A stretch of 61,467 nucleotides of DNA from a virus (Duplodnaviria > Caudoviricetes). The notes beneath the pieces are model-generated. The model ran no database searches and was not told the origin of the DNA. It was given only the letters and a program-made list of their open reading frames with translations. Each line of letters starts with the position of its first letter. Position 1 is the first letter of the stretch. Below are positions 3,015 to 48,888 of the stretch, in pieces. Both the position numbers and the translations under genes were made by a program. The stretch lies in the IMG/VR virus record IMGVR_UViG_3300026125_000002, positions 1 to 61,467 of that record. One strand, given 5' to 3'.

Positions 3015-4289
3015 TTATCGTTGTTCTACCCAGTTAATTGTACCATGTGCGGTTTTATTACCAACACTACTAGCAACCTGTAAAGTCCAAATATCGCTTG
3101 CAGTTCCCATATTAGTTCTGCCTAATTGATATGTAGCATGGCCGTTCAGTTCCATGGCACCTGGGTTTGTACCACCTGGAACAAAACCACTATTAATTGC
3201 AGTACCACCAGAAACACCAGTAGCACTTGTGTCATATTCTACAACGCTGTCTGCAATAGAATGTGGTGTCCAAACTGCTCCAGTTAAAGTAGCATTTCGA
3301 GTAAGTCTATAGTGCAAAAGAGTATTATCGGAAGTAGCAATAGCAAAATATGTTGGAATTACAACGGAATTTAATTTATCTGATTGTATTCTTATACTAA
3401 TAACAGGATACCAAGTGTCGGCAACTGACAATGTTTTACCTTCTAATGGAGTAATTACATTTCTGCTAATACCTTGATCCATAGCTTCGCCTTCTTCCAC
3501 TTGAGAGGCACTATATTGTTCCATATACCACGTGCCTGAACCAGCACTAACATTAGTTAGTTCAAGACGTATAGGTAAGAATGGTGTTGCAGACCAAGTG
3601 CTATCGAACATATTACCATGATAAAATTCATGGACTACAATGTAATAGTTTTCAATTACAAATCCAACATTTACTTGCCCGGCTCCATACCATTCATAGT
3701 CTAGAACAATCATTTGAACCTTAGATAGATCCAAAGTTGCTTTAGAAGAGCCAACACCATTAAGTTTATCTCTGTTCCAGTCGCTTTGTCTAACTCTACG
3801 CTCAACAGGCGTACCAGATACACTTGATCTGATAACTGCCCAGAGTTCTGTTCCATCTGACTCAAAAAATACACCATTATTTTCGTCAAAAATGCCTGCT
3901 CTTTTTCTTAATCCTGGAACATGCCCTTTAAAGTTTAAAGCAATAGAAATTTGTGTACCACGACTCGGAGTGTATCGCATAACATTTCTTGTTTGACGAA
4001 TAACTTCATCACCAGTTTCAAATACTCCTAAATGAACGTGTCTACCATCTGGATCCCATTCACCTACACCAGTACCCACAACAGCTTCATCCCAAGCGCT
4101 AGGTGATTTGTCATATTGGAAAGTGCTAAAAAAGTTAGTAGTTATATTACTAACTCTTAATCTATTCTTTTGTGTAAATGTTGGCCTAAATTCAGCGACA
4201 CCACCTCGCTGATTTCCCAACATAACTACTTCCATTCTAGAATCTGTACTACCATCTAATGATAGTAAATCACTTCTAAATTGAGCCAT
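3015..4289 (-). CDS. Beta-rich hypothetical protein, probably virion-associated; paralogue of 4310..5644
   Basis: 424-aa ORF with SD AGGAG; motifs RYTPSRG and LDYEWYGAG are shared with the neighbour. Confidence 0.6.
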   Translation of the reverse strand: MAQFRSDLLSLDGSTDSRMEVVMLGNQRGGVAEFRPTFTQKNRLRVSNITTNFFSTFQYDKSPSAWDEAVVGTGVGEWDPDGRHVHLGVFETGDEVIRQTRNVMRYTPSRGTQISIALNFKGHVPGLRKRAGIFDENNGVFFESDGTELWAVIRSSVSGTPVERRVRQSDWNRDKLNGVGSSKATLDLSKVQMIVLDYEWYGAGQVNVGFVIENYYIVVHEFYHGNMFDSTWSATPFLPIRLELTNVSAGSGTWYMEQYSASQVEEGEAMDQGISRNVITPLEGKTLSVADTWYPVISIRIQSDKLNSVVIPTYFAIATSDNTLLHYRLTRNATLTGAVWTPHSIADSVVEYDTSATGVSGGTAINSGFVPGGTNPGAMELNGHATYQLGRTNMGTASDIWTLQVASSVGNKTAHGTINWVEQR

Positions 4290-4309
4290 AGTCTTATATT
4301 CTCCTTATA

Positions 4310-5644
4310 TTATAACTGTTCCGAGAAGTAAAGCGTAGCGGCATATAATTGCGATGTACTCTGTAGACCAGTGCCAGATATAATTAAGATATCACCGGGT
4401 GTGATAATAAAATCAGAAGTTTTAGAATCATTTGTAACATAAGTCTTTGAGTCTTTAGCACTAAAGGTTGCCAATATTTGCGAGAAACCAGCTTTATCTG
4501 TTTGGAACGCAGTATTAAGAGCTCCAGCAGCATCACCATTTAATTGTAGCATACGTGAGTCTGGTATAGAATTCCAAGTTAATGCATCTACGGTAGGCGC
4601 AGCATAATCACGTGCCACGTAAACTTTAGTCATAGTATCAGCACTAGCACAGAAAACAGCTAATTTATCCATAATTGCGCCACGTGAATTGAACACAGTT
4701 TCACTGTTGTATGTTAAAGTTCTAGGTACTTTTATAGCAAGAACAGCGGTATCAACATCTGCGTTTCCTAGTGCTACTAAATCATTACCAGAATTTATAG
4801 AATTAAATAGCGTAGATTCTTCTTCACCGCCTTCAGATGCTACATCGACACATCCGCAAAGTAATTCAACTTCAGTACCTTCTTCTGTACAAATAGCATC
4901 AAAGTAAACTGGCAAAGCTGGATCATTAATAGAAAGAGATTCTAGTGTACCAGTAAGTTCATCTGTATATACTAGTTCTAAATCGACAAACACATAGTAA
5001 TTACCTACGCCACGCCATTGGAATTGAATGTCGTATACGTGACCTTTGCTTGGGTCAAAATCAGCAGGCAAGAATGGTTTTAAAGATACATCAGTTTGTA
5101 CTACAGTACCCTTGCGTCTTGTGAATCTTAAATCCCAATCAGCGCCGTCACCGATCAATTGAAATTCTACACCATTATGTGCTGTACCAAGACCAAACTC
5201 ACGGATACCAGAGGCTGTCGGATTTGGTAGAATTATCGCAGTACTAAACAACTGACCACGATTAGGCTGATAACGAACAAAGTTCTTAGTTTTAACTACG
5301 TGTCCTGCGCCAGCAGATGTACCAGAAAGAACAGATAACATTCTATCGCTTGATCGAATGTAAGTATTATCAATAGGCTTTTGAACTGGATTATAACCAG
5401 GAGTGTTATCAATATCTACTTGTTCCCAAACACGATTTGGAACGTTAAACGTAAATGTAGCAGAGAACAATGAGTGATCCATCACAGCTTTAGGTCTACC
5501 CCAAGCATCTAATGAGTATCGTGAATGTCCACCTCTGCCTGATCCAGGACCGACGTTACCGTTAGGGTCGCCGATCATTACTGTTTCATAGAGAGTCGTA
5601 TTATTCTCTAAGAATGTTTGATTTTGTCTATTATACTGTGCCAT
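4310..5644 (-). CDS. Beta-rich hypothetical protein, probably virion-associated; paralogue of 3015..4289
   Basis: 444-aa ORF; MAQY start; motifs RYQPNRG and IQFQWRGVG. Confidence 0.6.
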   Translation of the reverse strand: MAQYNRQNQTFLENNTTLYETVMIGDPNGNVGPGSGRGGHSRYSLDAWGRPKAVMDHSLFSATFTFNVPNRVWEQVDIDNTPGYNPVQKPIDNTYIRSSDRMLSVLSGTSAGAGHVVKTKNFVRYQPNRGQLFSTAIILPNPTASGIREFGLGTAHNGVEFQLIGDGADWDLRFTRRKGTVVQTDVSLKPFLPADFDPSKGHVYDIQFQWRGVGNYYVFVDLELVYTDELTGTLESLSINDPALPVYFDAICTEEGTEVELLCGCVDVASEGGEEESTLFNSINSGNDLVALGNADVDTAVLAIKVPRTLTYNSETVFNSRGAIMDKLAVFCASADTMTKVYVARDYAAPTVDALTWNSIPDSRMLQLNGDAAGALNTAFQTDKAGFSQILATFSAKDSKTYVTNDSKTSDFIITPGDILIISGTGLQSTSQLYAATLYFSEQL

Positions 5645-5645
5645 G

Positions 5646-5870
5646 TTACACCTGTGCTAAGTTGTCGTAATAAGTCTTGTCTAGTTCGCCAACAGATGTA
5701 GGTTCAGATATTTTTCTACATTTGATATATGTCTCACGTGTAATACTACCTATTGTATATGTGCGAACGCCTGCCGTTATTGTTCCAGGGCTATCTGGAT
5801 ATGTATCTGATCGAGTAGCAGTATCTTCATACTCCCACTCAGAATTGCCTGGTACTGGTAGCCATGCCAT
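5646..5870 (-). CDS. Small hypothetical protein
   Basis: MAWLPVPGNSEWEYE...; TAATG coupling with the upstream gene. Confidence 0.6.
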   Translation of the reverse strand: MAWLPVPGNSEWEYEDTATRSDTYPDSPGTITAGVRTYTIGSITRETYIKCRKISEPTSVGELDKTYYDNLAQV

Positions 5871-7120
5871 TATCGTTGCCATCCTTTGATTATATCTTGT
5901 GAGAAGTTAGCATTGCTAAATTGTAATCTATCGACAAGCTTAACTGCATTCTTACCCATATGATCAATAGCAACAAAGCCTTCTTGCTCAGTTACTTTAA
6001 AGCCATCAGCAGTCTTTAAGAATGTACCAACGTTTTTAGCTTTGTCAAGCTTCCTTACTATAATCAACTTAGCATCGATGATTAGATTATACAAATCAAA
6101 CAAAGCAACGATTTGAGATTTGGGTACATTAGAGAAGTATGCCATAACCTCTTTACGCTTGGCTTCTTTGCCAGCTTTACCCCTTTCAGTTTTTAGCTTA
6201 TCAATATCTTTCTGATAAACATTATAAATGTAGTCCATCAATTCGTCAACGAATCGACTAGTGTTAATGATCTTTTCACCTTGACGAACTTTAGTGTTAA
6301 CAAACGTCTTCATTCTAGTCTGCAATTCAGAGTTAGCTAGAATACCCTCGAAGGTAGGACGCTTGATTGTATTGAATAGTTTACCTGCATTGGATAGTAC
6401 TTTAGTGATCTGATCAGTCTCTTTTTCAGTGAAAGTAGCATTACCAGATACGTCTTTGTACATTGCATCTACTGACCAGACGCCTGACGTTTCTTTGAGT
6501 TTGCTTGCGATCTCCTTTCCAAAACTCGCAGACATTGATTCAAAACTATCTCCTCGGTATGTTGTGTGCCATACCACACCGATTTCGGATCGTTGAATTC
6601 TTTTTGCAAGTTCACTTTTTGCAGGTATAGCGTAAACAATCGTATTAGGATGGAAAGTAATATATTGCTCTCCATCGATAGTTTCTTTGCGTAAATCTTC
6701 TTTAGAGTAGAGGAAATCACCTTGTACAACTCCTTCAATTCCTAGCGAAGGCAAATGCTTCAGCGCTAGTTTCATCTTCTTGTTTAAATCACCGCTTGCG
6801 ATATCAGCATCAATATCAGCAGGAGTCTTGTATACTTTAGGGTTCTTGTTAAAGATACCCTTCTTAGCAACAAAGAATTTACCGTCAGATGGATCGACAC
6901 CAGCAAATACAGCAGGCGCACCGTCCCATTTAACAGTCACATTAACTTTACTATTTGAGTTACCAGCTAACATATCACGTAGAGAGCGCAGATAGTTGAT
7001 AGCTTGTCTAGCACCGTCTACACCTAGATTCAAGATAGAATCTTCTAGGTGTTCCATGTGAACGTTTTTCTCTTCTGCTAGTAGAGCTTGTTCTGTAATG
7101 AATGAAGTTAGACGTTTCAC
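5870..7120 (-). CDS. Conserved T4-like phage protein (DUF6267-like) with ligase-type nucleotidyltransferase motifs and a capsid-targeting-like N-terminus
   Basis: GTG start; N-terminus (M)KRLTSFITE; motifs TVKWDGAP, VQGDFLY, EGFV and VKLVDR. Confidence 0.7.
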   Translation of the reverse strand: MKRLTSFITEQALLAEEKNVHMEHLEDSILNLGVDGARQAINYLRSLRDMLAGNSNSKVNVTVKWDGAPAVFAGVDPSDGKFFVAKKGIFNKNPKVYKTPADIDADIASGDLNKKMKLALKHLPSLGIEGVVQGDFLYSKEDLRKETIDGEQYITFHPNTIVYAIPAKSELAKRIQRSEIGVVWHTTYRGDSFESMSASFGKEIASKLKETSGVWSVDAMYKDVSGNATFTEKETDQITKVLSNAGKLFNTIKRPTFEGILANSELQTRMKTFVNTKVRQGEKIINTSRFVDELMDYIYNVYQKDIDKLKTERGKAGKEAKRKEVMAYFSNVPKSQIVALFDLYNLIIDAKLIIVRKLDKAKNVGTFLKTADGFKVTEQEGFVAIDHMGKNAVKLVDRLQFSNANFSQDIIKGWQR

Positions 7121-7130
7121 GTATGCTTCC

Positions 7131-8207
7131 TTAAAACTTAATCTTTAGACCAACACGTGTTGAGCCGCTAGACGCACCACCATATGTAGCTAGAACGAAA
7201 CTTGTAAACTTAGGTAGTTCTGGCATTTTTAGAACGTTACCTGAAGACCCACCACCAACGTAGTAAATTTCAAAGTTGTCGTTAGACCTATTGTGAACAA
7301 CAAAGTAATCATCACCACCCTCTTTAAAATGATCGATTATAACTTGACGCATGTGTGCAAGAATGGTAGTGTCGGTGATAGCAAACTCATTAGGCAGTTT
7401 ACCAGATTTAACCACACCTTCATCGCCAGCTAGTCCAATCTTAGGATCACGTGATTTGAAGAAGTCGATAAGCCCAATGAAAGAGCTTTCAAACTTTTCT
7501 CTACGCATTAGATCAGCTACTTTGCCTTCTTTAACTTTCAAGTCTTTTATGTATACGTCTGCAATATCTTCAATGATATCTGGTTTACGACCAGTACGCT
7601 TAACAGACTTGTCAAAGAATGTGATTGGTGCCGATCTATTGTTGGTACCTTTAATCTCAAACTGAGTACGCTTCTTAGCAATCGTCATTTCAAGGTCTGG
7701 TCGAGTGGATCCCGGACGTGCAGTTTTAAACTCAGTCTCTACTTCGATACCTTTACTATATGCGATATCTTTTACGTGTTGAGCAACCATGTCTTGAGTC
7801 TTAGAACCAGCACCAACACGACCCTGACTGTTACCAGCAGGCTTAACTACAGCACTAATCGCCACATACCCATCTGGCTTTTGATCATATCCTTTCAAAG
7901 AGACAGGTGCAAGAACTGATCTACGTGTGATACCAAACTCGCTTGAACGATGTAATGTAGCTGGTAGAGTAAAGAATACACGTTCGCCTTTTTTAAGTTG
8001 CTTTACGATATCACCTTTCTCATTGTACATAGGAGTAGGCTTATCGGTAGTGAATCCTTCTTTGAATTTGTAGTTGTTTAGCTCAGTTGGTACGTATGTA
8101 GTACGTTCACCTGCACCACTAAACTCACGATTGTTACCTACATTAGCAGGAAAGTTTTTAGCAGAGAATGTAGCCACTTCTGTAAGATATCCTTTAAAAG
8201 ATTTCAT
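7131..8207 (-). CDS. Putative internal head protein with PD-(D/E)xK nuclease motif
   Basis: N-terminus MKSFKGYLTE; motif RPDL...QFEIKG; late promoter upstream; alternative start at 8219. Confidence 0.65.
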   Translation of the reverse strand: MKSFKGYLTEVATFSAKNFPANVGNNREFSGAGERTTYVPTELNNYKFKEGFTTDKPTPMYNEKGDIVKQLKKGERVFFTLPATLHRSSEFGITRRSVLAPVSLKGYDQKPDGYVAISAVVKPAGNSQGRVGAGSKTQDMVAQHVKDIAYSKGIEVETEFKTARPGSTRPDLEMTIAKKRTQFEIKGTNNRSAPITFFDKSVKRTGRKPDIIEDIADVYIKDLKVKEGKVADLMRREKFESSFIGLIDFFKSRDPKIGLAGDEGVVKSGKLPNEFAITDTTILAHMRQVIIDHFKEGGDDYFVVHNRSNDNFEIYYVGGGSSGNVLKMPELPKFTSFVLATYGGASSGSTRVGLKIKF

Positions 8208-8243
8208 TGAATTATCCATATTGCTTATTGATAGTAATATACT

Positions 8244-8251
8244 TATTTATA
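8244..8251 (-). promoter_or_regulatory. T4-type late promoter TATAAATA
   Basis: Exact consensus heading the 8207->3015 gene run. Confidence 0.75.
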
Positions 8252-8280: not shown

Positions 8281-8654
8281 GTATTTTCGATAGGCTCTGG
8301 ATCACCAAATAGATCAAACATCGAAGGCGCAGGTTCACCTCTAATGTCACGTGCTACCATCATCAAGCAATTAGGAAAGTTCTGATAGTCATCCTCATTG
8401 TCTATCACTACGTAATTATTCTCTTCTTGCTTACTGTCAGTGATAATAAGATTACCATTGACAAAGAACACGCTAACGTCACGAATCGGGTTCTGATAGT
8501 TTTCAATCTCAGTATTACCCAAATGACCTTGCTCAACCATTTCTTCAATGTAATCATGTAAAGCAAGTATAGTTTCATCATCCTGTATCACGACCTTATG
8601 TGTTTCTTCATCATTCATAAGTGTGAGTACGTCATCATTATAATCAAATATCAT
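8268..8654 (-). CDS. Acidic hypothetical protein
   Basis: 128-aa ORF tiling with its neighbours; no family recognised. Confidence 0.65.
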   Translation of the reverse strand: MIFDYNDDVLTLMNDEETHKVVIQDDETILALHDYIEEMVEQGHLGNTEIENYQNPIRDVSVFFVNGNLIITDSKQEENNYVVIDNEDDYQNFPNCLMMVARDIRGEPAPSMFDLFGDPEPIENTEEA

Positions 8655-8829
8655 ATTTTGTATATCCCTTCATTTCTCGAAATACGTCTTTAACAAAAGA
8701 GTGTGGAGCACCAGACAAACGTTGTGCGGTCAATATAACATTGTCTGTGTTATACTTATCTCTGGCATGTTCCATGATCATAGCTTCTCTAAGCGCATCA
8801 CGGATAGTTCTTTCTAGAGTCTGATCCAT
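8644..8829 (-). CDS. Small hypothetical (early) protein
   Basis: 61-aa ORF with SD GAGGTG and a sigma70 promoter upstream. Confidence 0.65.
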   Translation of the reverse strand: MDQTLERTIRDALREAMIMEHARDKYNTDNVILTAQRLSGAPHSFVKDVFREMKGYTKYDI

Positions 8830-8860
8830 AGTCGTACACCTCTCATTTTACTTTGCAGTA

Positions 8861-8889
8861 AGTATATAGTATTATCCCAAATCTTTCAA
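8861..8889 (-). promoter_or_regulatory. sigma70-type early promoter
   Basis: TTGAAA-17-TATACT with a T-tract UP-like element upstream. Confidence 0.6.
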
Positions 8890-8941
8890 GAAAAAAGTCC
8901 AAAAAAAATTCAAAAAAGTGCGTTTCCGAGGATTTAGTTTG

Positions 8942-8949
8942 TATAAATA
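8942..8949 (+). promoter_or_regulatory. T4-type late promoter on the plus strand
   Basis: Exact TATAAATA in intergenic DNA, facing a structured non-coding stretch. Confidence 0.65.
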
Positions 8950-8954
8950 GTTAC

Positions 8955-9125
8955 GGGTGCGTGAAAGTACGTGTATCTTAATTACGTAAGAGGCAAGTGT
9001 TTGAGAGTATTCAATACTACAACCATAAGGAATAGCAGGTGTCGCATCAAGTATGCCCGTGGGGTTCGGACCTGCCACGTATCAAGCGAATAAAAGGCGG
9101 CTAGCTAAAAACTAGTCGCCTTTTT
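8955..9125 (+). ncRNA. Candidate structured non-coding RNA of about 130-170 nt, family unrecognised
   Basis: Bounded by a late promoter and a terminator; closing stem 8956-8963/9076-9083; internal stems 8968-8973/8983-8988 and 9035-9040/9070-9075; no plus-strand ORF. Confidence 0.6.
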
Positions 9126-9129
9126 CTTT
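9091..9129. terminator. Bidirectional terminator (gp41 on minus, candidate ncRNA on plus)
   Basis: AAAA-GGCGGCTAG-loop-CTAGTCGCC-TTTTTCTTT. Confidence 0.8.
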
Positions 9130-9134
9130 GGGCG

Positions 9135-10556
9135 TTATTTGAAGCCTTCAAACTTCGGCTTCTCTTTCTTTCTAAAACTCACAACACCATCAAAGCCACC
9201 TTTCTCTGAGTTCACACGTTGACCAACTGAACCCTTATCTGCAACTGGACCCGAATCATCCATCAAGTCTTGCGCTGATTCTTCTGCATCGAATAGACGC
9301 ATCTTAGAACGATCAATACCAACTACAAATCGTTTAAGAGTATTGGTGTCACCCCAACGGTTTTTCAACTGCTTAATCATCAACTGTCCTAGATTCTCTA
9401 GCTCTTCTGTTGAGATAAGACCAAACATAAAGTCGGCAGTAGCAGGTAGACCAAACGATTCAGAGGTATCTTCTAGGCCCATATCAGAGTTAGAGTAACC
9501 AGATCGTGTAGTCTGAGTAGCAGACATAATTGGTACGTTAAACTCTACAGCAAGACCACGTAGCTCTTCTGCAATTGCTTTGATCAAAGTGTAAGAGTTC
9601 ACATTTGAACCCATACGCATACGTGAAGATGTACAGATATTCAAGTAATCGATGTAAACGATATCTGGTATAAAGTTCTTCTTCAAACGTAGCTCATTTA
9701 ACAAGTGTCGGAAGTTAGCAGAACCAGCACTTGCAGTAGGGTACTCTTTAATGATCAATTTACCAGTCGTTTTAGACTTAACACGATTCAAGCGCTTCTG
9801 ATATACATCACGTGGAACTTCACGTAGATTATCAAGCGTCATATCTAGTAGGTTAGCATCAATACGTTCAGCAATACGTTCTTCAGCCATCTCCATAGTA
9901 ATGTATAGAACATTCTGACCAGCCATTAGATTAGCAGAGGCGCAGTGAGTCATAAACAATGTCTTACCAACACCAGTGCCAGCTAGTGCAACTGACAGTG
10001 ACTTGCGAGATAGACCACCTTTGGTAATCTTGTTGAGTAGTTCAAGATCGAATGGTACTTTGTCTTCTTTAGTGTGATAGAAAGTGTAACGATCATCAGC
10101 ATTATCTAAGAAGTCGTGACCAATACTGCTATCGAATGATACACCAAGCGCTTTAGACAAAAGTTCTGGAATAGAACCCTTATCTAGCGACTTGTGATTA
10201 CCATCTAGAACCAGAATAGATTCACGGACAGCATTGTATACAGCTTTGTCTTGACAGAACTTTTCAGTCTTATCTACAAGCCAATCGATATCAGTTTTTT
10301 GATCGTAATCAAGACTATCAATAGATTGCATGATAGTCTTGTATTGATCTTCATTGAGGTTGTCTTTTTCACTAATAGCGATACGTAGGGCTTCTCTGGT
10401 GGGAAGCCCATTGTATTGATCTACATAACCTACAATTTCTTTGTAGATTGTCTTGTCACTTTGACTATCAAAATATTCATCTTTTAGAAACGGGAGTACT
10501 TTACGGGTATACTCTTCGTTAAACAACAACCCTGAAAGAATTGTAGATTCAATCAT
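9135..10556 (-). CDS. gp41: Replicative DNA helicase (T4 gp41, DnaB-like)
   Basis: LAGTGVGKT Walker A; YITMEMAEE, IDYLNI, SESFGLPATAD and KQLKNR motifs. Confidence 0.97.
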   Translation of the reverse strand: MIESTILSGLLFNEEYTRKVLPFLKDEYFDSQSDKTIYKEIVGYVDQYNGLPTREALRIAISEKDNLNEDQYKTIMQSIDSLDYDQKTDIDWLVDKTEKFCQDKAVYNAVRESILVLDGNHKSLDKGSIPELLSKALGVSFDSSIGHDFLDNADDRYTFYHTKEDKVPFDLELLNKITKGGLSRKSLSVALAGTGVGKTLFMTHCASANLMAGQNVLYITMEMAEERIAERIDANLLDMTLDNLREVPRDVYQKRLNRVKSKTTGKLIIKEYPTASAGSANFRHLLNELRLKKNFIPDIVYIDYLNICTSSRMRMGSNVNSYTLIKAIAEELRGLAVEFNVPIMSATQTTRSGYSNSDMGLEDTSESFGLPATADFMFGLISTEELENLGQLMIKQLKNRWGDTNTLKRFVVGIDRSKMRLFDAEESAQDLMDDSGPVADKGSVGQRVNSEKGGFDGVVSFRKKEKPKFEGFK

Positions 10557-11794: not shown

Positions 11795-11821
11795 ATTATC
11801 ACGACCCCTTGTATATGTCAA
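11793..11821 (-). promoter_or_regulatory. sigma70-type promoter upstream of uvsX/gp41
   Basis: TTGACA-17-TAATAT. Confidence 0.5.
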
Positions 11822-12062
11822 GGAGTTTAGTTTCAAATTGTTCAATCTTCTCTGTGCGATTAGGCCAGAGAATGTATTCTTTCTCGGGATTCTTTTTAAG
11901 ATTAGTGAGTAGAGGCATAATTGCATTATACAATGCATCTAGTCTCTCTTGGGTTGAAGTTGCTGTAGTGCTTGCTTCTTGCACTACAGTCTGTGCTTGT
12001 TGTACCGCTTCTAGTTCGTTTTCGTCAACTGCGGTAAAACCAAAGTCAAATATATCGTCCAT
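11799..12062 (-). CDS. Conserved hypothetical phage protein
   Basis: MDDIFDFGFTAVDE...PLLTNLKKNPEKEYILWPNR; SD GAGGA. Confidence 0.7.
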   Translation of the reverse strand: MDDIFDFGFTAVDENELEAVQQAQTVVQEASTTATSTQERLDALYNAIMPLLTNLKKNPEKEYILWPNRTEKIEQFETKLLDIYKGS

Positions 12063-12063
12063 G

Positions 12064-13185
12064 TTAGTCCTCTCGTTTGCCTGTGCCCCAATCAATAACA
12101 ACTGGGAATCGTGGAATGCCATCTGGCGTTAACGCAAAGTAACGTAGTGTTGCCCACTCAGGTTGTACACCACTTTCAAATAGCTCTTTCATCTGTTCAT
12201 ATGTACCACGTACACCAGCATCGAAACCAACACCATGTGCATCGTATAGATGAAAACGCTTAATTGCACCAGACCAGTTACCTTGGCCTTCTGAAACTCC
12301 ACAAACTCCATACTCTTCGGTGATAAACTCTTTGCGTTTGAGGAGATATTTAGATCGCTTATTTTCGTATGATTGATCATCACGAATCATCTGACCTTCA
12401 TAACCAGCCTCTAGATACTGACCATATAAGCGATCAATAGATTCAGTGTCAGTTACAAATGCAGTTTCAACTAAAACAATAGGATCTGATAGTCCTAGAG
12501 ACTCTAGCTCAGTGATACGCTCAAAGAAAGACTTGTCACTGTACATATCATAAACGTGATACTGCACTAGCTCACGTGAAGTTTCAATGTCTGCGGGCTT
12601 AAGCTTAGTCTTGCGTACTGTAGAAGTGATCTTGTTAAAATCATCTTTTAGATCGTGGTTGTATAGCTCCCCATCTAGTATTAGATCAGGGTTTGCTTCA
12701 AAAAGTTCCGCAAGTGCTTCAACAATATGTGGACAAGATACGATCTCTTTGCCAGAGCGAGTCCAGAGTCCGTCAGCACGTGCAATGCAGCGAATACCAT
12801 CTAACTTAGGTTGTGAGTAGATAGCGCCCATCTTGTCTAATGCTTTAACGTTATACTCTTTAGCTAGCATTGGCTTGAACTTAGTGAACTTATCAACATC
12901 TTCTTTGTTGTCAAAGTAACCAGTCTCACGCTTGATAGTGTAGAGCGATTCGATTTCAGAAAAAGCTTGTTCAAGTGCTGTAGTAGCATTTGATCGACCT
13001 ACGTTCTTAGGTTCAGTTACTTTCCACTCAGATGTGACAAGCTTGCCACCATCGATACCAGCAACGGTTCGATGGGCAGCCTCATTGTCAGAGTTGAAAC
13101 CGATCTCCATATTCCAGCGGCGAATCTCACCTTTACTATCACGTTTGTATAGAGGTGAAAACAGTTCAATCTCGTTATAGCTCAT
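12064..13185 (-). CDS. ATP-dependent DNA ligase
   Basis: QPKLDGIR (motif I), LDGELY, EGQMIR, LLKRK and PRFP motifs. Confidence 0.95.
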   Translation of the reverse strand: MSYNEIELFSPLYKRDSKGEIRRWNMEIGFNSDNEAAHRTVAGIDGGKLVTSEWKVTEPKNVGRSNATTALEQAFSEIESLYTIKRETGYFDNKEDVDKFTKFKPMLAKEYNVKALDKMGAIYSQPKLDGIRCIARADGLWTRSGKEIVSCPHIVEALAELFEANPDLILDGELYNHDLKDDFNKITSTVRKTKLKPADIETSRELVQYHVYDMYSDKSFFERITELESLGLSDPIVLVETAFVTDTESIDRLYGQYLEAGYEGQMIRDDQSYENKRSKYLLKRKEFITEEYGVCGVSEGQGNWSGAIKRFHLYDAHGVGFDAGVRGTYEQMKELFESGVQPEWATLRYFALTPDGIPRFPVVIDWGTGKRED

Positions 13186-17676: not shown

Positions 17677-18066
17677 TTACTTTTTCTTACCAATGCTGTA
17701 TTTTGCAACTAGCTCCCATTCGTCTTTGTCTTTGAATGGTAGAATCTTGATTTGTGACATAGGCGCCACTGGCTCTTTAATTTTATCAGCTTCTACTAGC
17801 TTTAGCAAGCCCCATTCTTGAAGCAAGTTGACAATTGTGTTTCTACGTGCTTGATCTTCTTCTGAGAAGTCATTAATCTTACCATCAAGCATAAACAGTT
17901 CTTTAAAGTGTACGATGTAGTACTTACCTTGCTTATGTAAGATATGGCACGATTGATATAGTTTTCTATCTTTTTTTGAGGCAATGCCGATGCGGGTTAG
18001 AGTCTCTTTAATCTTTAGGAAACTCTCTTCATTTGGTAGCTCGACCTCCACGAGTTTTTCAATCAT
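17677..18066 (-). CDS. regA: Translational repressor RegA
   Basis: FLKIKETLTRIGIAS..LYQSCHILHKQG.YYIVHFKELF.LDG. Confidence 0.97.
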   Translation of the reverse strand: MIEKLVEVELPNEESFLKIKETLTRIGIASKKDRKLYQSCHILHKQGKYYIVHFKELFMLDGKINDFSEEDQARRNTIVNLLQEWGLLKLVEADKIKEPVAPMSQIKILPFKDKDEWELVAKYSIGKKK

Positions 18067-20138: not shown

Positions 20139-20789
20139 TTAGCGAGATTCGATTGCAATCCAGTATTGTACTTTGTCAGATTTAAAATGAGCCATACCTT
20201 TAGAAGACAAAGCAACTTCATAATCGGTTGGCATTAGTTTTAGGTTTTCAGTCTTAATGACCATTGAGAAATCTTCTGCATCAACGTCTTCTGCGACAAC
20301 TACGCTATACGTATCAGCAGTTGGATTCTTACTATCAACAGCAGATAGTGTAATAGTATTTTCAGTGCATGTAAAGGCAATTTCAGGTAAATTTAGTACG
20401 CCTGCCGCACGGATAACACCTTCGATATCAGACCAAGAGATATCCATCGTTGCTTCTGGGTTAGGGACAACGATATCTTTGTCTGGTGGAGAAACGATCA
20501 TGTTCTCAGAAGTGTATGTGTACTTGAGACTGCTACGATCACCTTTAATGTTGAATTGATTGTCACCAAACACAACATCTGGGTCATTGAACAGATTCAG
20601 AGTAGCTAGAAAACGTGATACATCATAGACGCCTGCTTGCTTATCAATAGTCTCTGATACAGTAGCGGCTGCCATGACTGTTTTCTGTGGAGAGATAGTG
20701 CGAATAACTTGCCCTGGTTTGAAGATAACACTAGGGTTGATAGCAGAGAAGTTTTTCAAAACACTTAGAGTTTCATTGCTGAATTTCAT
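20139..20789 (-). CDS. gp45: Sliding clamp (gp45)
   Basis: MKFSNETLSVLKNFSAIN; YDVSRFL; ENLKL; YWIAIE. Confidence 0.95.
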   Translation of the reverse strand: MKFSNETLSVLKNFSAINPSVIFKPGQVIRTISPQKTVMAAATVSETIDKQAGVYDVSRFLATLNLFNDPDVVFGDNQFNIKGDRSSLKYTYTSENMIVSPPDKDIVVPNPEATMDISWSDIEGVIRAAGVLNLPEIAFTCTENTITLSAVDSKNPTADTYSVVVAEDVDAEDFSMVIKTENLKLMPTDYEVALSSKGMAHFKSDKVQYWIAIESR

Positions 20790-21717: not shown

Positions 21718-22312
21718 TATATTTTCTCTTAGTAGCCTCGAACTTTTCAGCTAGTTCTAGTTGCTCTTTAATCCACTTAGCAGACTGCTTTGCGCTGAAT
21801 GCTTCAGTTGCAACTTTAGGCATACGATCATCTTCACCGATACCACGAATAACAGAAGCGCTCAACATCATAGCTGAAGCCATAATCATACAGACTTGGT
21901 GTAGACCCGAACCATCTGCGCCATCGTCATAGTTATGACCACGTTCAAAGTCATCAATGTGGCGCTTAAGACTATCGATCATCTGTTGCCAAGGAAGACC
22001 TTTCTCCCAGTTACGATCTGCATACTTCTTAGCACCATACTCTAGTGAGGCAGCGCCAGCAGCAAGAGCTTCTAGCGGTAGTTGACGAAAGTATGGTACA
22101 CCAAGAGCTTCACGCTGAGCACCAGTCTTAGATGCATTGTATTTAGGTATTTCATTCATCCAATGATCTGGATCAACTTTATCAGTATCGTCATAAAACG
22201 CTCTGGGAACACCTGGTTCATGGTCATCAGCTAATCGATTGTAATATGCTCTAGCCACTGAGGACCACTCTTCGGGTTTGGCGTCATCAATACTTTTGAT
22301 TCTATCACTCAT
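21707..22312 (-). CDS. dATP/dGTP diphosphohydrolase-domain protein (DUF5664-like)
   Basis: YGAKKYADRNWEKG, SLKRH and SGLH motifs. Confidence 0.8.
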   Translation of the reverse strand: MSDRIKSIDDAKPEEWSSVARAYYNRLADDHEPGVPRAFYDDTDKVDPDHWMNEIPKYNASKTGAQREALGVPYFRQLPLEALAAGAASLEYGAKKYADRNWEKGLPWQQMIDSLKRHIDDFERGHNYDDGADGSGLHQVCMIMASAMMLSASVIRGIGEDDRMPKVATEAFSAKQSAKWIKEQLELAEKFEATKRKYNED

Positions 22313-22944
22313 TATCTTTCAACCTGTTCTAAATCATTCTCGGCACGACAAATAGCTTGAAGTCTTAAGATATCTGCGGCAACATCGTGTGTACTATCGT
22401 GACCTACAAATGCTTCTTTCCAATATGCTTCATCTGCAACTGGGACAAAGCCACTTCGTGTGCTGAAGTCAAATTTAGCATCGATGTATGTGCGAATGTC
22501 ACGTATGCGCCACCACTTCAAGTATTCATTCATAAGAAGATGTTGATCAAGCTGGTTCATCACACGTTCAAGCAAAACTGGATCAAACGAGTTACCACGT
22601 GACCACCAGTAATTGATCTTACCCACACTTCTTAGATAAGAGAATATATTAGCAGAAAACTCTTCTATTGTCAAGTCATCTGGTTTAGGTAATATCTTTT
22701 TCTTAGCTTCTTTTGATTGCTTTCCCCACCAAGCTAGATCATCTTTAGTATATGAACAACCACGTGCAACTTGATCAGCAACAGAAAGTTTATCTGTCTG
22801 TACTTGTGCGGTAAGTTCTTCAAAAGAGTAAGGATCACTAGTAAAGCGATCCCAGTCAAACGCTACATACGCAACGTCAATGATAGGGCATTTCATAACG
22901 TTCTGCCCTATCGTTTCAAAGTCAAGAATAAAATCTTGATTCAT
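22312..22944 (-). CDS. dexA: DexA-like 3'-5' exonuclease (DEDDh)
   Basis: DFILDFET, WSRGNSFD, RDIRT and HDSTHDVAADIL motifs. Confidence 0.85.
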   Translation of the reverse strand: MNQDFILDFETIGQNVMKCPIIDVAYVAFDWDRFTSDPYSFEELTAQVQTDKLSVADQVARGCSYTKDDLAWWGKQSKEAKKKILPKPDDLTIEEFSANIFSYLRSVGKINYWWSRGNSFDPVLLERVMNQLDQHLLMNEYLKWWRIRDIRTYIDAKFDFSTRSGFVPVADEAYWKEAFVGHDSTHDVAADILRLQAICRAENDLEQVER

Positions 22945-24720: not shown

Positions 24721-25431
24721 TTATTTTATGGCAATTGCACCAACAAACAAGTGATTCTGCCAGAAGGTTTGAACTGAATTGAAGCCCGCTGTTGATAGCA
24801 TTTCGTTCAACTCACTCCAAGTATTTGGTTTGAGCATACTACGTAGATCACGCTCTTTGTCCATAATATCTTCTACAGTGAAGTTCTCACGTTTAAAGTC
24901 GTAATACATGAATGTTAGCATATCTTGAACCTTAGGACTGCAAGAATATGTCTTCTCGGCAAAAACAAATGCACCACCAGTATTAAGACCTTTATAGATT
25001 TTATTAAGAACATCTTGCCTATCTTTGTGTGGCATAAACTGTAGTGTAAAGATAGATGTTATCATAGAACAATTAGCGAAATCAAACTCACGTACATCAG
25101 CTTGTCTAAGATCGATTTCGGGATACTGGCTCATTCTTTTTTTCATGTCATCAACAAAACCATCTGCATAGTCGATACCTCGATATCGTGCCTTTGGTGC
25201 AAAATGATGATTCTGGTCATACATAGCGGCAAGAGTCTTACCAGTAGAACAACCGATATCGACAACATTAGTATCATTCTCTACGAAGTACTTCGACATT
25301 TTAACAATATCGTCATGGAGAGAGGAGTAGTGTCTAATGCTCATATCGATATGATTATCAAAACCCTCTTGGCGGTGTGCAAATGTGAAATCGTTTGCAC
25401 TAGCAACAGTAGACTTTTCACGATCTTTCAT
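24721..25431 (-). CDS. cmoA: CmoA-like carboxy-S-adenosylmethionine synthase
   Basis: FDNHIDMSIRHY, DIGCSTG, FTLQF, LNTGGAFVFAEK, YDFKR and FWQ follow the CmoA motif order. Confidence 0.85.
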   Translation of the reverse strand: MKDREKSTVASANDFTFAHRQEGFDNHIDMSIRHYSSLHDDIVKMSKYFVENDTNVVDIGCSTGKTLAAMYDQNHHFAPKARYRGIDYADGFVDDMKKRMSQYPEIDLRQADVREFDFANCSMITSIFTLQFMPHKDRQDVLNKIYKGLNTGGAFVFAEKTYSCSPKVQDMLTFMYYDFKRENFTVEDIMDKERDLRSMLKPNTWSELNEMLSTAGFNSVQTFWQNHLFVGAIAIK

Positions 25432-25435
25432 AATA

Positions 25436-26662
25436 TTAGCCCTTTAGTTCATTGTATGGTTTCAACACATTCTGATATATCGACTTAGCAACTTCAGCCA
25501 TCATCTTAGGCGCAACCATGCGACCAATGCGCTCGGCTTGCTGATCAAATGTACCAGTTAGCTTATAGTCATCAGGTAGCGACATTATAACCTTTAGCTC
25601 TTGTATTGTCAACTTACGATTTTCAGCGTAGTGGAATACACCAGATAGACCACGCTTCTGACCTTGTTGAGTCAAAGTTGGACTAGGTAGATGTGGTGCA
25701 GGTCTGATCATGTTGAAGCAAGAACCTTTTGGATTCCAACTGCGAAACTCTGGATCACTTGGTTTAGTATGCTTGAGTGGTCGAAACGGTAGCGGGTCTA
25801 GAAACTTCTTCTGAAACGAATTCTCGTAGAAGTCACGTAGCATCTGCACTTCTTCAGGATCATTCTCAATATCTTCAATAGCTGATTCAAGACTGACTGG
25901 TTGTGCGACAGTCTTAGCAGGAAAGATACCGTTTAGATTTAGAACATTTAGACCAATAGCATCACAAACATCTTCACGAACACAAATAAAGATAGTACGC
26001 TCACGTGCTTGTGGAGTACCATAATCTGCGGCATTTAGAACTTGATACGTTACTTGATACCCAATAGCTTCGAATGACTTGATGAACTCAAACAGCTTCT
26101 TCTGGGCTTCACCAAACGTAATGCCTTTGACATTCTCTGCAACGATAACCTTGGGTTTAATGTCTTTAGCTACACGAATGAACTCTAAGAACAAGTCCTC
26201 AATACCTTCCTGAGTCTTACCGTCAGAGTACTTCTTGATACCCTCTTTAATCTTTAACTCACCTTCTTGAACGATGTTACCGTCTTCATCAAAGTAAGTT
26301 TTGCGAGTATCTTCAGCATAGCCAGCCCAACCCTTTTCACGCTTACCCGCTACAGAGAATGCGGAACATGGTGGAGAGCCGTCTAGAATATCTAGCTCTC
26401 CCACCTTAAGGTTTGCCATCTTTAAGAAGTCTTCACCAGAGTACTTTTTGATATCATCAACTAATACAGGAGTGTCTGGGTAGTTCTCCTTATAAGATGC
26501 AATAGCTTCTTCTACAAACTCATTAATGAGTAGTATATTACCGCCAGCGAGGCGATAGCCAGTGGAGCTACCTCCACCTCCGGCGAAACAACTAACGACT
26601 GAAAATAATTTTTTATTCGATTCATTTTTAACATCTTCGACTGTATACTTTTGGTATTTCAT
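25436..26662 (-). CDS. C5-cytosine DNA methyltransferase-family enzyme, predicted carboxymethyltransferase
   Basis: FAGGGG (motif I), GSPPCSAFS (IV), ENV (VI), QARER (VIII); motif X reads IGRMV instead of GN(A/S)V. Confidence 0.88.
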   Translation of the reverse strand: MKYQKYTVEDVKNESNKKLFSVVSCFAGGGGSSTGYRLAGGNILLINEFVEEAIASYKENYPDTPVLVDDIKKYSGEDFLKMANLKVGELDILDGSPPCSAFSVAGKREKGWAGYAEDTRKTYFDEDGNIVQEGELKIKEGIKKYSDGKTQEGIEDLFLEFIRVAKDIKPKVIVAENVKGITFGEAQKKLFEFIKSFEAIGYQVTYQVLNAADYGTPQARERTIFICVREDVCDAIGLNVLNLNGIFPAKTVAQPVSLESAIEDIENDPEEVQMLRDFYENSFQKKFLDPLPFRPLKHTKPSDPEFRSWNPKGSCFNMIRPAPHLPSPTLTQQGQKRGLSGVFHYAENRKLTIQELKVIMSLPDDYKLTGTFDQQAERIGRMVAPKMMAEVAKSIYQNVLKPYNELKG

Positions 26663-26670
26663 CTTTGCCC

Positions 26671-27480
26671 TCAAAATAAAGTTGGACCTACGTCTTGCCA
26701 GTCTCGGACTAGATCCATGACTCTTTGCCTATTATATAGGTTTATGCTTTTGTTGTCAAGCAACTTTTCAAAGTAGTCAGGAATACCCGCAACTAATTGT
26801 AGGTTCTCATGTTTGCGTCTCTTGATCTGTTTAATCTCTGAGAACGCTTCATGTATGGGCGCCTTTTGGGATGGTTTATTGAAAAAGTCCCAGTCGTGTT
26901 GCATCATCCAATCAGCAACTTCAGGTTCAAGATATGGTGCGATTAATTTCATACCATACTCTTCTGCTAGTTGCCTTTGCTGTAGAACACCCGCTGGATT
27001 CTCTGCCCCGAAGTAGTCTGTGCGGAACTTATCGAAAAGCTCTTTAGTGTGTTTGAAATGAATGTTAGCACGTTTAGAAACACCGTACCAACCATCAGCC
27101 GCTACACCAGACAATACTACTTTCTGTTCAATCTTTGGATACACATACAAGAATGGAAATGTGCATTCAACTTGGGTCTTCTTCTTACAACCGTACCTAT
27201 TTATAAGAGTAAAGAAGTCATCGGCTATATTATCTACGGGTACATTAACGCCAACGAAGTCCCAACCAAAATGCTCTGCAACGTCTTTAGCACCTAGACT
27301 ATCACTAGTCTGTTTACCGTTAACGTACATGCTATACCCAGTAACTTTCTTACCGAGTCTATGTGCGGCTAGCGCACACGTGATACTATCTGTTCCTGCC
27401 GATAAAAGAACGGCAACCTCATCAATACCTTGAGATTGCCTTTCTACAATATCGACAATGATATCGTCAATATTTTTCAT
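26671..27480 (-). CDS. Asparagine-synthetase-like ATP-dependent amide ligase (synthetase domain only)
   Basis: LLSAGTDS PP-loop; VLSGVAADGWYG; APYL; no N-terminal glutaminase domain. Confidence 0.8.
   Translation of the reverse strand: MKNIDDIIVDIVERQSQGIDEVAVLLSAGTDSITCALAAHRLGKKVTGYSMYVNGKQTSDSLGAKDVAEHFGWDFVGVNVPVDNIADDFFTLINRYGCKKKTQVECTFPFLYVYPKIEQKVVLSGVAADGWYGVSKRANIHFKHTKELFDKFRTDYFGAENPAGVLQQRQLAEEYGMKLIAPYLEPEVADWMMQHDWDFFNKPSQKAPIHEAFSEIKQIKRRKHENLQLVAGIPDYFEKLLDNKSINLYNRQRVMDLVRDWQDVGPTLF
26731..26759 (-). promoter_or_regulatory. Consensus sigma70 promoter for the MTase-cmoA pair, inside the upstream gene
   Basis: TTGACA-17-TATAAT. Confidence 0.7.
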
Positions 27481-31152: not shown

Positions 31153-31731
31153 CTATTCCTCGGGAGGCGGGTTTTCCTCAACTATTTCATCATCATCCAT
31201 GAACTTCTCTAGTCCACGTTTAGTCTTACTCTGTTGCTTCTTCTTAGACTCCATACGCTTTTCATATGTAGCAACAAAGTCATTCATATAGTCATTGTCT
31301 AAATCGATATAGTTAGGATCACCCACATCATTGTCACCATCACGCTCTACAGCGGTATCGTGAATGACTGAGTTTTCGATAACCTTATGTCGAATATACA
31401 GTTGTTTCTTCTCTTTGTCAATACGTCTTAAGAATGCATACCAGATGATCTGTGTGAAGTATGCAAACGGATTACTAGACTTAGTTGGATCAAAGTTGCC
31501 TAGTGCTTGTACAGCATTTTCTAGACCATCGCTGATCATTTCGTCTTTATACGTGTAACCCGAAAAGTTAGGCTTAGTAGCTAGTCTAGTAGCAATCTGA
31601 TAAAGACATTCGCCAATGTAGTTAGGAATACGTGGCTCTGGCTTGCCTTCGGCAATCGCTGTCGCACACTGATTCTTATACTCAACAATAGCTGCTAAGA
31701 ATTCTGGATTGTTAACATAATTTCTGGACAT
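31153..31731 (-). CDS. gp55: Late-transcription sigma factor (gp55)
   Basis: YVNN.EFL, YIGEC..IA..L...PNF.GYTYK.EMI.DG and NPFAYFTQI..YAFLRRI motifs. Confidence 0.97.
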   Translation of the reverse strand: MSRNYVNNPEFLAAIVEYKNQCATAIAEGKPEPRIPNYIGECLYQIATRLATKPNFSGYTYKDEMISDGLENAVQALGNFDPTKSSNPFAYFTQIIWYAFLRRIDKEKKQLYIRHKVIENSVIHDTAVERDGDNDVGDPNYIDLDNDYMNDFVATYEKRMESKKKQQSKTKRGLEKFMDDDEIVEENPPPEE

Positions 31732-31756
31732 CATCACCTCATATAATTTTTTACAT

Positions 31757-36047: not shown

Positions 36048-36055
36048 TATTTATA
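36048..36055 (-). promoter_or_regulatory. T4-type late promoter TATAAATA for gp23
   Basis: Exact consensus 35 nt upstream of the ATG. Confidence 0.85.
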
Positions 36056-36991: not shown

Positions 36992-37040
36992 TTGACTTCT
37001 CCTTAGTTTAAAAGTATTGCTACCTTATTATTTATATGAA

Positions 37041-42819: not shown

Positions 42820-42827
42820 TATTTATA
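42820..42827 (-). promoter_or_regulatory. T4-type late promoter TATAAATA for gp18
   Basis: Exact consensus in the gp17-gp18 gap. Confidence 0.8.
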
Positions 42828-48354: not shown

Positions 48355-48888
48355 TTAGGTCCATTTGCTATTATTTATACTCAGCTTATCTATAGCAGTC
48401 TGTCTTGTTTCTTCATCAGCAAAGAGAAGTGCAACGGTGATTCGATTACCTATCGATACTACTCTATGCCAATCTTGTTCATTCTTAAATTGATTAGTCT
48501 TGTATGACCATCCTATAATATCATAGTGTTTTTTGTCTTGACATTCAAAGTAACTCCAGTTAGAATCTGAGTAAGTCAGTATCAAGTTATATCCATTTAC
48601 TTTAGAGTTAGTGTGCCATCCCAAGAAGTCTCCTTCTTTGTATAGGGTTGTCATCATAACAATACCGTTTAACTTATTTTGCAATTCATATACAAAGTCA
48701 AACTGATACTTACCTGATATGTCGTAAAGAGCATAGTTTTTAGATACGTTAGAATCACCATCTATCATATCTTCTTTTAGTGAACCACGTTCTAGTCGTG
48801 TGAGAGTGATATCTTCCGACTCACTCAGCACACGATCCGAGAACTTATTTAGAAAGTCATTATGCACATAGCGATGAATGTCTATCAT
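48355..48888 (-). CDS. 2OG-Fe(II) oxygenase-like protein
   Basis: YKEGDFLGWHTN...WHRV...RITVA jelly-roll motif pattern. Confidence 0.65.
   Translation of the reverse strand: MIDIHRYVHNDFLNKFSDRVLSESEDITLTRLERGSLKEDMIDGDSNVSKNYALYDISGKYQFDFVYELQNKLNGIVMMTTLYKEGDFLGWHTNSKVNGYNLILTYSDSNWSYFECQDKKHYDIIGWSYKTNQFKNEQDWHRVVSIGNRITVALLFADEETRQTAIDKLSINNSKWT
48372..48379 (-). promoter_or_regulatory. T4-type late promoter TATAAATA for the fibre-gp13 operon
   Basis: Exact consensus 38 nt upstream of ATG 48334. Confidence 0.7.

Follow-up and report, generated by a model that had tools for sequence, protein, structure and literature searches.

The window analysed here is the whole of one IMG/VR record, a stretch of 61,467 bases with an estimated completeness of 34%, and is a T4-like myovirus contig. 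Its minus strand carries 56 of the 57 non-nested ORFs of at least 70 aa. The window encodes T4-type replication and transcription proteins (UvsX, a gp41-type DnaB helicase, a family-B DNA polymerase, the clamp, the clamp loader, RegA, a gp55-like sigma factor, UvsW and UvsY) together with T4-type virion proteins (gp23, scaffold, prohead protease, portal, tail tube, sheath and terminase). A Sigma70_r2 protein is encoded at 31153-31737 and a gp45 homologue at 20139-20789. The helicase is at most about 60% identical, and the polymerase at most about 55% identical, to those in any phage record searched, the nearest being Kyanoviridae-type phages. The locus under study lies just downstream of the helicase gene, where the following features were read:

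8830-9134, region between the gp41 stop and a small minus-strand ORF (8644-8829)
9135-10556, minus strand, gp41-type DnaB helicase gene, convergent with the RNA (Pfam DnaB_C, 2.9e-18)
8861-8889, minus strand, sigma-70-like promoter candidate by consensus (TTGAAA, 17-nt spacer, TATACT), matching at 10 of 12 positions
8942-8949, plus strand, T4-type late promoter box TATAAATA, exact match
8955-9085, plus strand, core of the structured RNA, a predicted four-way junction of P1-P4 with two hairpins on P4; 110.2 bits with covariance model R1 and 101 bits with R2
8955-8957, plus strand, 5' GGG, invariant in the alignments of the main clade and, from its spacing to the late box, the probable transcript start region
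8958-8963, plus strand, P1 5' strand UGCGUG, pairing with CACGUA at 9076-9081 (6 bp) and closing the fold
8968-8972, plus strand, P2 5' strand UACGU, pairing with 8984-8988
8984-8988, plus strand, P2 3' strand ACGUA
8989-8997, plus strand, J2/3, unpaired AGAGGCAAG, family-wide A-G-N-G-G-C-A-M-G
8998-9026, plus strand, P3 arm, of no fixed length or sequence; its probable form in this subclade is UUGA 9001-9004 with UCAA 9011-9014
9027-9034, plus strand, J3/4, unpaired AAGGAAUA, family-wide GGAAUAG, whose last G starts P4
9035-9040, plus strand, P4 5' strand GCAGGU, pairing with 9070-9075 (6 bp)
9044-9056, plus strand, P4a hairpin, GCAU-loop-AUGC (9044-9047 with 9053-9056), optional
9057-9069, plus strand, P4b hairpin, CCG/CGG stem of 3 bp (9057-9059 with 9067-9069) and 7-nt loop UGGGGUU (9060-9066)
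9070-9075, plus strand, P4 3' strand ACCUGC
9076-9081, plus strand, P1 3' strand CACGUA
9096-9125, plus strand, intrinsic terminator with a 9-bp stem (9096-9104 with 9112-9120), a 7-nt loop and a U-tract at 9121-9125

The sigma-70-like promoter candidate faces the next minus-strand genes and is divergent from the RNA gene. Among the proteins encoded nearby, those of 61, 128 and 362 aa had no Pfam or PHROG match, and the 362-aa protein and a DUF6267 protein had no sequence relative in the PDB.

Homologues of this RNA are present in well over 100 IMG/VR contigs. In a starting set of 80 loci around gp41 relatives from IMG/VR, blastn with the intergenic region returned nine homologues, 68-78% identical and on the strand opposite gp41. 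Their MAFFT alignment contains evident compensatory changes together with invariant TATAAATA, GGGUGCGUG, AAGAGGCAAGUGU, AAGGAAUAG and UGGGGUU. A first covariance model (R1), built from ten sequences, re-found these nine and added 12 weaker but significant matches (24-58 bits) that lie on the gp41 strand in more distant loci; E-values throughout come from briefly calibrated models. Scanning IMG/VR with a pattern of two conserved blocks gave at least 119 stretches, and a model search on 71 of 80 scan loci found a full-length match in 70 of the 71, with E below 1e-13. A scan for a minimal variant of 95-105 nt added at least 45 contigs, and all 41 of those searched with the model matched it. A broader model, R2, was applied to 81 sources, made up of the window and the 80 gp41 loci, and in 22 of them it placed the RNA next to gp41 (E below 1e-9), a fraction that is a lower bound because some of these loci end soon after gp41.

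The RNA occurs as a single copy in all five large contigs, two of which are at least 98% complete. The photosynthesis gene psbA is absent from these two genomes; as all T4-like cyanophages known to us carry it, the hosts of the RNA-carrying phages are probably not cyanobacteria. Searches among named phages and prokaryote genomes gave nothing convincing. The window locus and two distant variants had no blastn match in 50,697 phage records, and the covariance models gave only weak matches in the records of S-SM2, Melnitz-1, Syn30, C48C1, DLP_6 and T4. Those in S-SM2 (19.1 bits, E 0.012, and 14.2-14.4 bits) and the best one in T4 (R2, 10.7 bits, E 1.96, at 128387-128480) were set aside on score alone; the Syn30 match, which sits between small genes near gp23, was rejected on reading, as the motif is missing. 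Two pattern scans over 185,579 prokaryote species, at one genome per species, gave 0 and 10 matches, and the ten loci were discarded, with a best model match below 17 bits and, in four of them, no match up to an E-value of 1.

The signals that flank the RNA are those of a late phage transcript. The promoter box claimed in the original prediction is indeed exact and on the plus strand, and it is the single plus-strand copy among the 11 occurrences of TATAAATA in the window. Shuffled windows contain 4.9 copies on average, and none of 100 reached 11. Of the ten copies on the minus strand, nine are placed, by a reading of coordinates, no more than about 60 nt 5' of an ORF start; gp23, scaffold and sheath are among these ORFs, and with this placement the box behaves as a late promoter of the phage. 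A box of the NNTAAATA type is found no more than 45 nt upstream of the RNA in all 62 distinct homologues compared, as TATAAATA in 55, ACTAAATA in four, AATAAATA in two and GCTAAATA in one, the last being a member that the script pattern had missed. The distance from the end of the box to the first G of the RNA, taken as the first position of the model, is 5-9 nt in 56 of the 62. A TATAAATA-type box near the start, along with genes for a gp55-like sigma factor and a gp45 clamp, is what characterizes T4-type late units, and the RNA gene is predicted from these signals to be such a unit.

At the other end, the terminator expected on the plus strand is also there, a 9-bp hairpin followed by UUUUU, even though a simple consensus terminator scan did not list it. 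All 62 homologues have a hairpin and a run of at least four Ts downstream of P1, at a median of about 29 nt, and the terminator stems covary in the alignment. Since the terminator is A-rich on its 5' side, it could also end the convergent gp41 transcript. That all 62 homologues conserve a late box and a terminator, both on one strand, bears out the proposal of an independent plus-strand unit. We infer late transcription, and the exact ends of the RNA, from these conserved signals.

The arrangement of neighbouring genes points in the same direction. At most loci both neighbours are antisense to the RNA, which faces a convergent gp41 either directly or with one or two small ORFs in between. In 65 of 96 contexts a gp41 homologue is among the two nearest ORFs, convergent and downstream in 61 and co-oriented and upstream in four. 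A minor clade has the RNA and gp41 in the same orientation. Among the 26 distinct loci of a minimal clade, also co-oriented, most contain a second box of the late type between the terminator of the RNA and the next gene, mostly TATAAATA itself with a few variants such as CCTAAATA or GGATAAATA. This second box indicates that the RNA is not the leader of that gene. Taken together, its own promoter and terminator, the change of orientation between clades and the single copy suggest an independent gene whose product most likely acts in trans. No RNA-binding gene was found to co-occur in the flanks. In one locus, L077, a gene for an Rnl1-type RNA ligase directly follows the RNA; it is the only such match in the window and the loci collected, so an association with RNA ligase was rejected as confined to that locus, and the DUF6267 protein has no similarity to this ligase.

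The predicted fold goes beyond chance, with its support coming from comparison rather than from energy. The folding energy of the core (8955-9085) is no better than that of shuffled sequences (z -0.67), and that of the core plus terminator gives a z of -2.33. In the 62 distinct homologues, 95.4% of the pair cells hold standard pairs against 77.0% in shuffles, a percentage that, like others from the alignments fitted to the model (A3-A5; A2 was not fitted), is somewhat inflated. Two-sided changes occur in 27 of the 29 pairs, a number that none of 500 shuffles reached, and control structures slid along the same sequences were paired in 24-51% of cells. The MAFFT alignment, which is not fitted to the model, gives 97.2% of cells paired against 84.1% when shuffled, with two-sided changes in 14 of 29 pairs; again, none of 500 shuffles was as good, and slid controls were paired in 27-49% of cells. 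The covariation among homologues that had been put forward as a check is very marked. The sense of the fold can also be read from the alignment of homologues, where 82 G.U cells are found against 14 A.C cells; this excess identifies the folded strand as the one that bears the late box and the U-tract.

RNAalifold and a structure set by hand give the same layout of P1-P4, and every helix of the closed multibranch structure first described from the window alone is present. Its P1, given as GGUGCGUG/CACGUAUC, has UGCGUG/CACGUA as its conserved core, with 93.8% of cells paired and two-sided changes in five of its six pairs (alignment A4, 62 sequences). In the same 62 sequences, the corresponding values are 96.7% and four of five pairs for P2, 86.9% and five of five for P3 as modelled, 98.4% and six of six for P4, 99.1% and four of four for P4a, and 99.5% and three of three for P4b. 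The minimal clade on its own has two-sided changes in five of six pairs of P1 and in all five pairs of both P2 and P3. Not all parts of the structure are constant. The P3 arm is shorter in other clades, and the UUGA/UCAA pairing, read from the alignments with its pairs uncounted, appears to be the form that this arm takes in the present subclade. P4a is missing in 25 of the 26 distinct minimal-clade sequences, which have a bulge of 3-5 nt instead. Sequence conservation is concentrated in the 5' GGG, J2/3, J3/4 and the loop UGGGGUU: J2/3 is invariant in the main alignments and kept in distant clades too, and the loop is identical in 62 of 62 sequences.

Two details of the original prediction did not fare as well. 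The alternative pairing of 8968-8973 with 9076-9081, which would join the 5' strand of P2 to the 3' strand of P1, can be formed in the window; across homologues it reaches 76.2% against 74.7% in shuffles (29/500), which is the level expected from composition, and it therefore lacks comparative support. The stretch GGUUCGGAC, likened to a T-loop, instead begins within the UGGGGUU loop, whose 3' part it covers, continues along the 3' strand of P4b and ends just inside the 3' strand of P4.

We compared the RNA with known classes. Rfam 15 (4227 models) at gathering cut-offs gave no match in the whole window or in 11 distant homologue loci. When E-values up to 10 were allowed, six matches appeared between 8700 and 9300, at 9.6-16.6 bits and all far under the cut-offs. 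Most of these six fall on the terminator or outside the core of the RNA. The family search that had been proposed as a test of novelty therefore leaves the RNA uncatalogued. ARAGORN found no tRNA or tmRNA genes in the window and no Rfam tRNA family matched, in agreement with the view that this is neither a tRNA nor a tmRNA; no known ribozyme model of Rfam matched either, as had also been anticipated. An identity as tRNA was discarded on structural grounds too: J2/3 and J3/4 are about 10 nt each, and the 7-nt loop is UGGGGUU rather than UUCRANY. These linkers and this loop, unlike those of a tRNA T-arm, together with the ARAGORN and Rfam results, speak against the suggestion that the RNA is a tRNA-like species. 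Membership of the riboswitch class is not supported either, as most loci have no co-oriented downstream gene and, where there is one, it mostly has its own late-type box.

The statement that the RNA contains no ORF is not literally correct, given that mechanical ORFs of 40 aa (plus strand, 8971-9093) and 68 aa (minus strand, 8872-9078) overlap it. Neither has a Pfam match. A small protein gene was considered and rejected: open frames number 41 on each of the two strands and are spread over all frames, and the lengths of the core across homologues fall into the three classes modulo 3 in the proportions 22/18/22, with no frame conserved. Searches of the full-text literature yielded no description of this RNA. 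Of the proposal of a novel stable phage RNA, the part that stands is an uncatalogued structured RNA on the plus strand behind a late promoter, as conservation, covariation and the G.U excess indicate; the tRNA-like part does not, and a decoy or a packaged RNA would be conceivable. That the locus encodes a real, uncatalogued, independently transcribed RNA of this kind is well supported, its expression being predicted from the signals around it.

How could such an RNA work? In the mechanism that we propose, the late transcription machinery would start at TATAAATA (8942-8949), with the GGG at 8955 about 6 nt downstream, and would stop at the U-tract (9121-9125) to give an RNA of about 170 nt. The first 130 nt or so would fold into the four-way junction, in which the sequences of P1-P4 could change freely provided that pairing holds. 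Three elements would then stand out as near-constant: AGAGGCAAG and AAGGAAUAG, which are junction strands rich in purines, and UGGGGUU, the loop of a hairpin. It would be this folded core, and not a long seed for base pairing, through which the RNA acts in trans. During the late phase of infection, junction and loop would present a surface to which a protein binds, be it an RNP partner or a factor of host or phage that is thereby sequestered. Constant junctions and loops set in covarying helices are typical of RNAs that act via a three-dimensional binding surface, and the finding of a near-invariant junction and loop within helices that covary freely and are partly dispensable favours a protein-binding or RNP role. 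We lean towards this reading, a stand-alone late RNA gene whose folded core would act in trans and bind a putative protein partner, as somewhat better than an even chance. The purine-rich junction strands could equally be a seed for host targets or the pocket for a ligand.

The first of these two options for the junction strands leads to the alternative that we regard as the leading rival, if an unlikely one, in which the RNA is a base-pairing sRNA. Exposed AAGAGGCAAG and/or AAGGAAUAG would pair late in infection with host mRNAs, with phage mRNAs outside our view or with rRNA, and the folded body and U-tail would serve stability and the binding of a chaperone. The layout is the usual one for trans sRNAs: a pair of single-stranded stretches, invariant and 9-10 nt long, stands next to a hairpin terminator that has a U-tail, and to a linker rich in A and U. 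However, sites complementary to the three conserved single-stranded elements number 5, 4 and 4 in the 61-kb window against 4.0, 3.9 and 4.4 expected, and in each of the three counts one match is the RNA locus itself. Complementary sites are thus at chance level, which argues against a seed for phage mRNAs. Moreover, a covarying four-way junction with an invariant distal loop exceeds what an sRNA of the seed type usually needs.

The ligand pocket corresponds to a riboswitch-like sensor, to which we give slightly lower odds than to the sRNA. Here the junction would be an aptamer for a metabolite or ion, and its occupancy would decide between stopping and reading on at the terminator; read-on would produce RNA antisense to gp41 and uvsX in the main clade, whereas in the co-oriented clade the transcript would extend in sense orientation into the gene that follows. 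A conserved junction and distal loop amid freely covarying helices is a pattern typical of aptamers, and all members have a terminator some 10-15 nt beyond P1. The genomic context fits this poorly, as most loci offer no co-oriented gene downstream to be controlled, and the co-oriented downstream genes that exist mostly have their own late-type box after the terminator. As to a switching mechanism, the single candidate for an alternative pairing is at composition level and no conserved antiterminator was found by eye; nor does any Rfam riboswitch match.

Some narrower uses of the conserved elements were considered by eye and rejected, as no conserved complement was seen: a pRNA-like loop-loop contact of UGGGGUU with itself, a mimic of an anticodon loop, and a reading of the junction strands as an SD or anti-SD decoy.

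A catalytic or processed RNA seems to us a good deal less probable, whether as a ribozyme that cleaves itself or as a tRNA-like molecule, substrate or mimic, that undergoes cutting, ligation or modification. A four-way junction with conserved residues in the junction, and an Rnl1-family RNA ligase gene right behind the RNA in L077, would fit it. Against it, the hammerhead, twister, twister-sister, hatchet, pistol, HDV-like and hairpin models do not match, neither Rfam nor ARAGORN recognises a tRNA or tmRNA, the ligase is a neighbour in one locus only, and the RNA has long junction linkers and no CCA-like 3' end. Finally, a DNA-level element, for example a replication or recombination site beside the helicase gene that folds in single-stranded form, would account for the steady position next to gp41 and uvsX, but we consider it highly improbable because the late box and U-tract terminator are conserved on one strand in 62 of 62 homologues, the terminator stems covary, and the signals move along with the element when its orientation flips.

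In a further-reaching view, the RNA could represent a new class of phage RNP or sensor RNA, made late and at a high level, in which the junction and UGGGGUU capture a host factor or a small molecule. We put this forward tentatively, as a possibility with the odds against it; the carriers would be uncultured T4-like phages, a large group whose hosts are probably heterotrophic bacteria. If true, the candidates for the captured factor would be a translation, RNA-decay or defence protein, and the RNA would control the late phase or disarm the host response, a role for which we know of no T4-type phage RNA. Binding of a host factor would be a new way for abundant aquatic phages to manage the late phase. 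Irrespective of function, the gene is conserved, single-copy and clearly selected for its fold, and it is found in well over 100 environmental phage contigs, two of them at least 98% complete. The RNA marks a phage clade, and can thereby help in annotation, and is a candidate for a new Rfam family. Being compact (about 100-130 nt), it can be synthesised directly and is suited to ligand screens, pull-downs and structure determination.

Among the nearest known systems are two RNAs of T4 itself. The T4 RNAs rnaC and rnaD (species 1 and 2 RNA), for which we know of no function, are likewise small RNAs of a T4-type phage, about 120-140 nt long and not tRNAs. They differ in position, lying within the T4 tRNA cluster beside tRNA-Arg according to the T4 annotation, whereas the window has no tRNA genes, and in origin, as they are processed from tRNA transcripts and are not known to have a late promoter of their own. 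Model R2 gave no match in the T4 record at rnaC/rnaD (70908-71171). The pRNA of phi29-type phages is comparable as a phage-encoded structured RNA of several helices and similar size, and it works in trans within a protein machine late in infection. In contrast to it, the new RNA has no Rfam match, its UGGGGUU has no invariant partner in the alignments and there is no conserved ring-forming pair of loops. Also, T4-type packaging motors need no RNA as far as we know, and the window encodes a T4-type terminase and portal.

A further comparison is with RNAs found by computational screens. A screen of IMG/VR listed 8495 candidate structured RNAs, 1241 of them with terminators (Fremin, Bhatt and Kyrpides 2023, PMC10690425). 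The main text of that paper does not contain the terms 'helicase', 'T4-like', 'DnaB' or 'late promoter', and the present motif may be among the unnamed candidates of its supplementary lists (PMC10690425), uncharacterised. The RNAs known from T4-like cyanophages (manA, wcaG, the glutamine riboswitch, PhotoRC-II and CfrI) resemble ours in being conserved motifs of marine T4-like phages, as two papers describe, and manA and wcaG are placed there in potential 5' UTRs of genes (PMC2864571, PMC9964418). The new RNA differs from all of these in being free-standing, and none of their families matches it even at Rfam E-values up to 10. CfrI, for its part, is an antisense RNA. We rate the RNA described here, which matches no Rfam family, as a new family within a broad class that is already known, that of small structured RNAs encoded by phages. 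To our knowledge, no free-standing regulatory or structural RNA with a late promoter is known from T4-like phages, which rank among the most thoroughly studied viruses, and it is its dedicated late-promoter transcription unit that makes this RNA unusual among phages of the T4 type.

On our reading of the data, the gene of the structured RNA is the only plus-strand unit in the window to combine a late promoter box with a terminator, because 56 of the 57 non-nested ORFs of at least 70 aa in the whole window (1-61467) lie on the minus strand, and the remaining one is opposite minus-strand ORFs. This ORF and the other genes considered here are as follows:

5870-7120, minus strand, DUF6267 protein (1.5e-114)
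7131-8219, minus strand, 362-aa protein without a family match
11809-12132, plus strand, the single plus-strand ORF of at least 70 aa
16047-17087, minus strand, peroxiredoxin (Redoxin, 4.4e-23) and small heat-shock protein (Hsp20, 1.6e-20)
17677-18066, minus strand, RegA, translational repressor (3.8e-43)
22312-22944, minus strand, 3'-5' exoribonuclease of the Rv2179c-like family (4e-16)
24721-26674, minus strand, C-5 cytosine DNA methylase (5.7e-51) and an adjoining SAM-dependent methyltransferase-domain protein
26671-27480, asparagine-synthase-like protein, next after the methylase/methyltransferase pair
48885-54494, minus strand, very large ORF of 1869 aa, no Pfam match
56554-61140, minus strand, very large ORF of 1528 aa, no Pfam match

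Judged by position, the two very large ORFs probably encode baseplate or fibre proteins. The exoribonuclease and RegA are RNA-related proteins encoded away from the RNA locus, and the peroxiredoxin and Hsp20 genes are of an auxiliary type.

The minus strand of the window carries ten TATAAATA boxes (among them 8244-8251, 36048-36055, 37029-37036 and 42820-42827), and for nine of them, as we read the coordinates, an ORF begins no more than about 60 nt downstream. The genes behind these nine include gp23, the scaffold, the sheath, a gp45 homologue, the 362-aa gene and Hsp20, the last with its box 60 nt upstream. Only 4 nt separate the box at 36048-36055 from the start of gp23 as set by its longest ORF, and this start has therefore probably been placed too far upstream.

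The terminator of the RNA gene (9092-9125) looks bidirectional, because its 5' side is A-rich and its 3' side U-rich, and it probably also ends the convergent transcript of gp41, the DnaB-type helicase gene. The form AAAGGC...GCCUUUU is common to many homologues of the RNA. In the clade in which RNA and gp41 are co-oriented, gp41 is followed by a small ORF and a late box, then by the RNA with its terminator, a second late-type box and the next gene. This layout is found in L024, L022, L018, L023 and L026 and in the majority of the 26 loci of the minimal clade, whose RNA mostly lacks the P4a hairpin. With the second box standing between the terminator and the next gene, this arrangement gives two late units back to back.

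As to what follows the RNA, in the homologous locus L077 the RNA and its terminator are directly followed by an Rnl1-family RNA ligase gene (3602-4525, plus strand; PF09511, 1.1e-32), a neighbour seen in L077 only among the window and the loci compared. In the window, the RNA region is followed by the genes of the 362-aa and DUF6267 proteins, neither of which has a sequence relative in the PDB, and in L018 a DUF6267 protein (5113-6336) is encoded two genes after the RNA. The named phage Melnitz-1 lacks the RNA but has ORFs of similar size after gp41.
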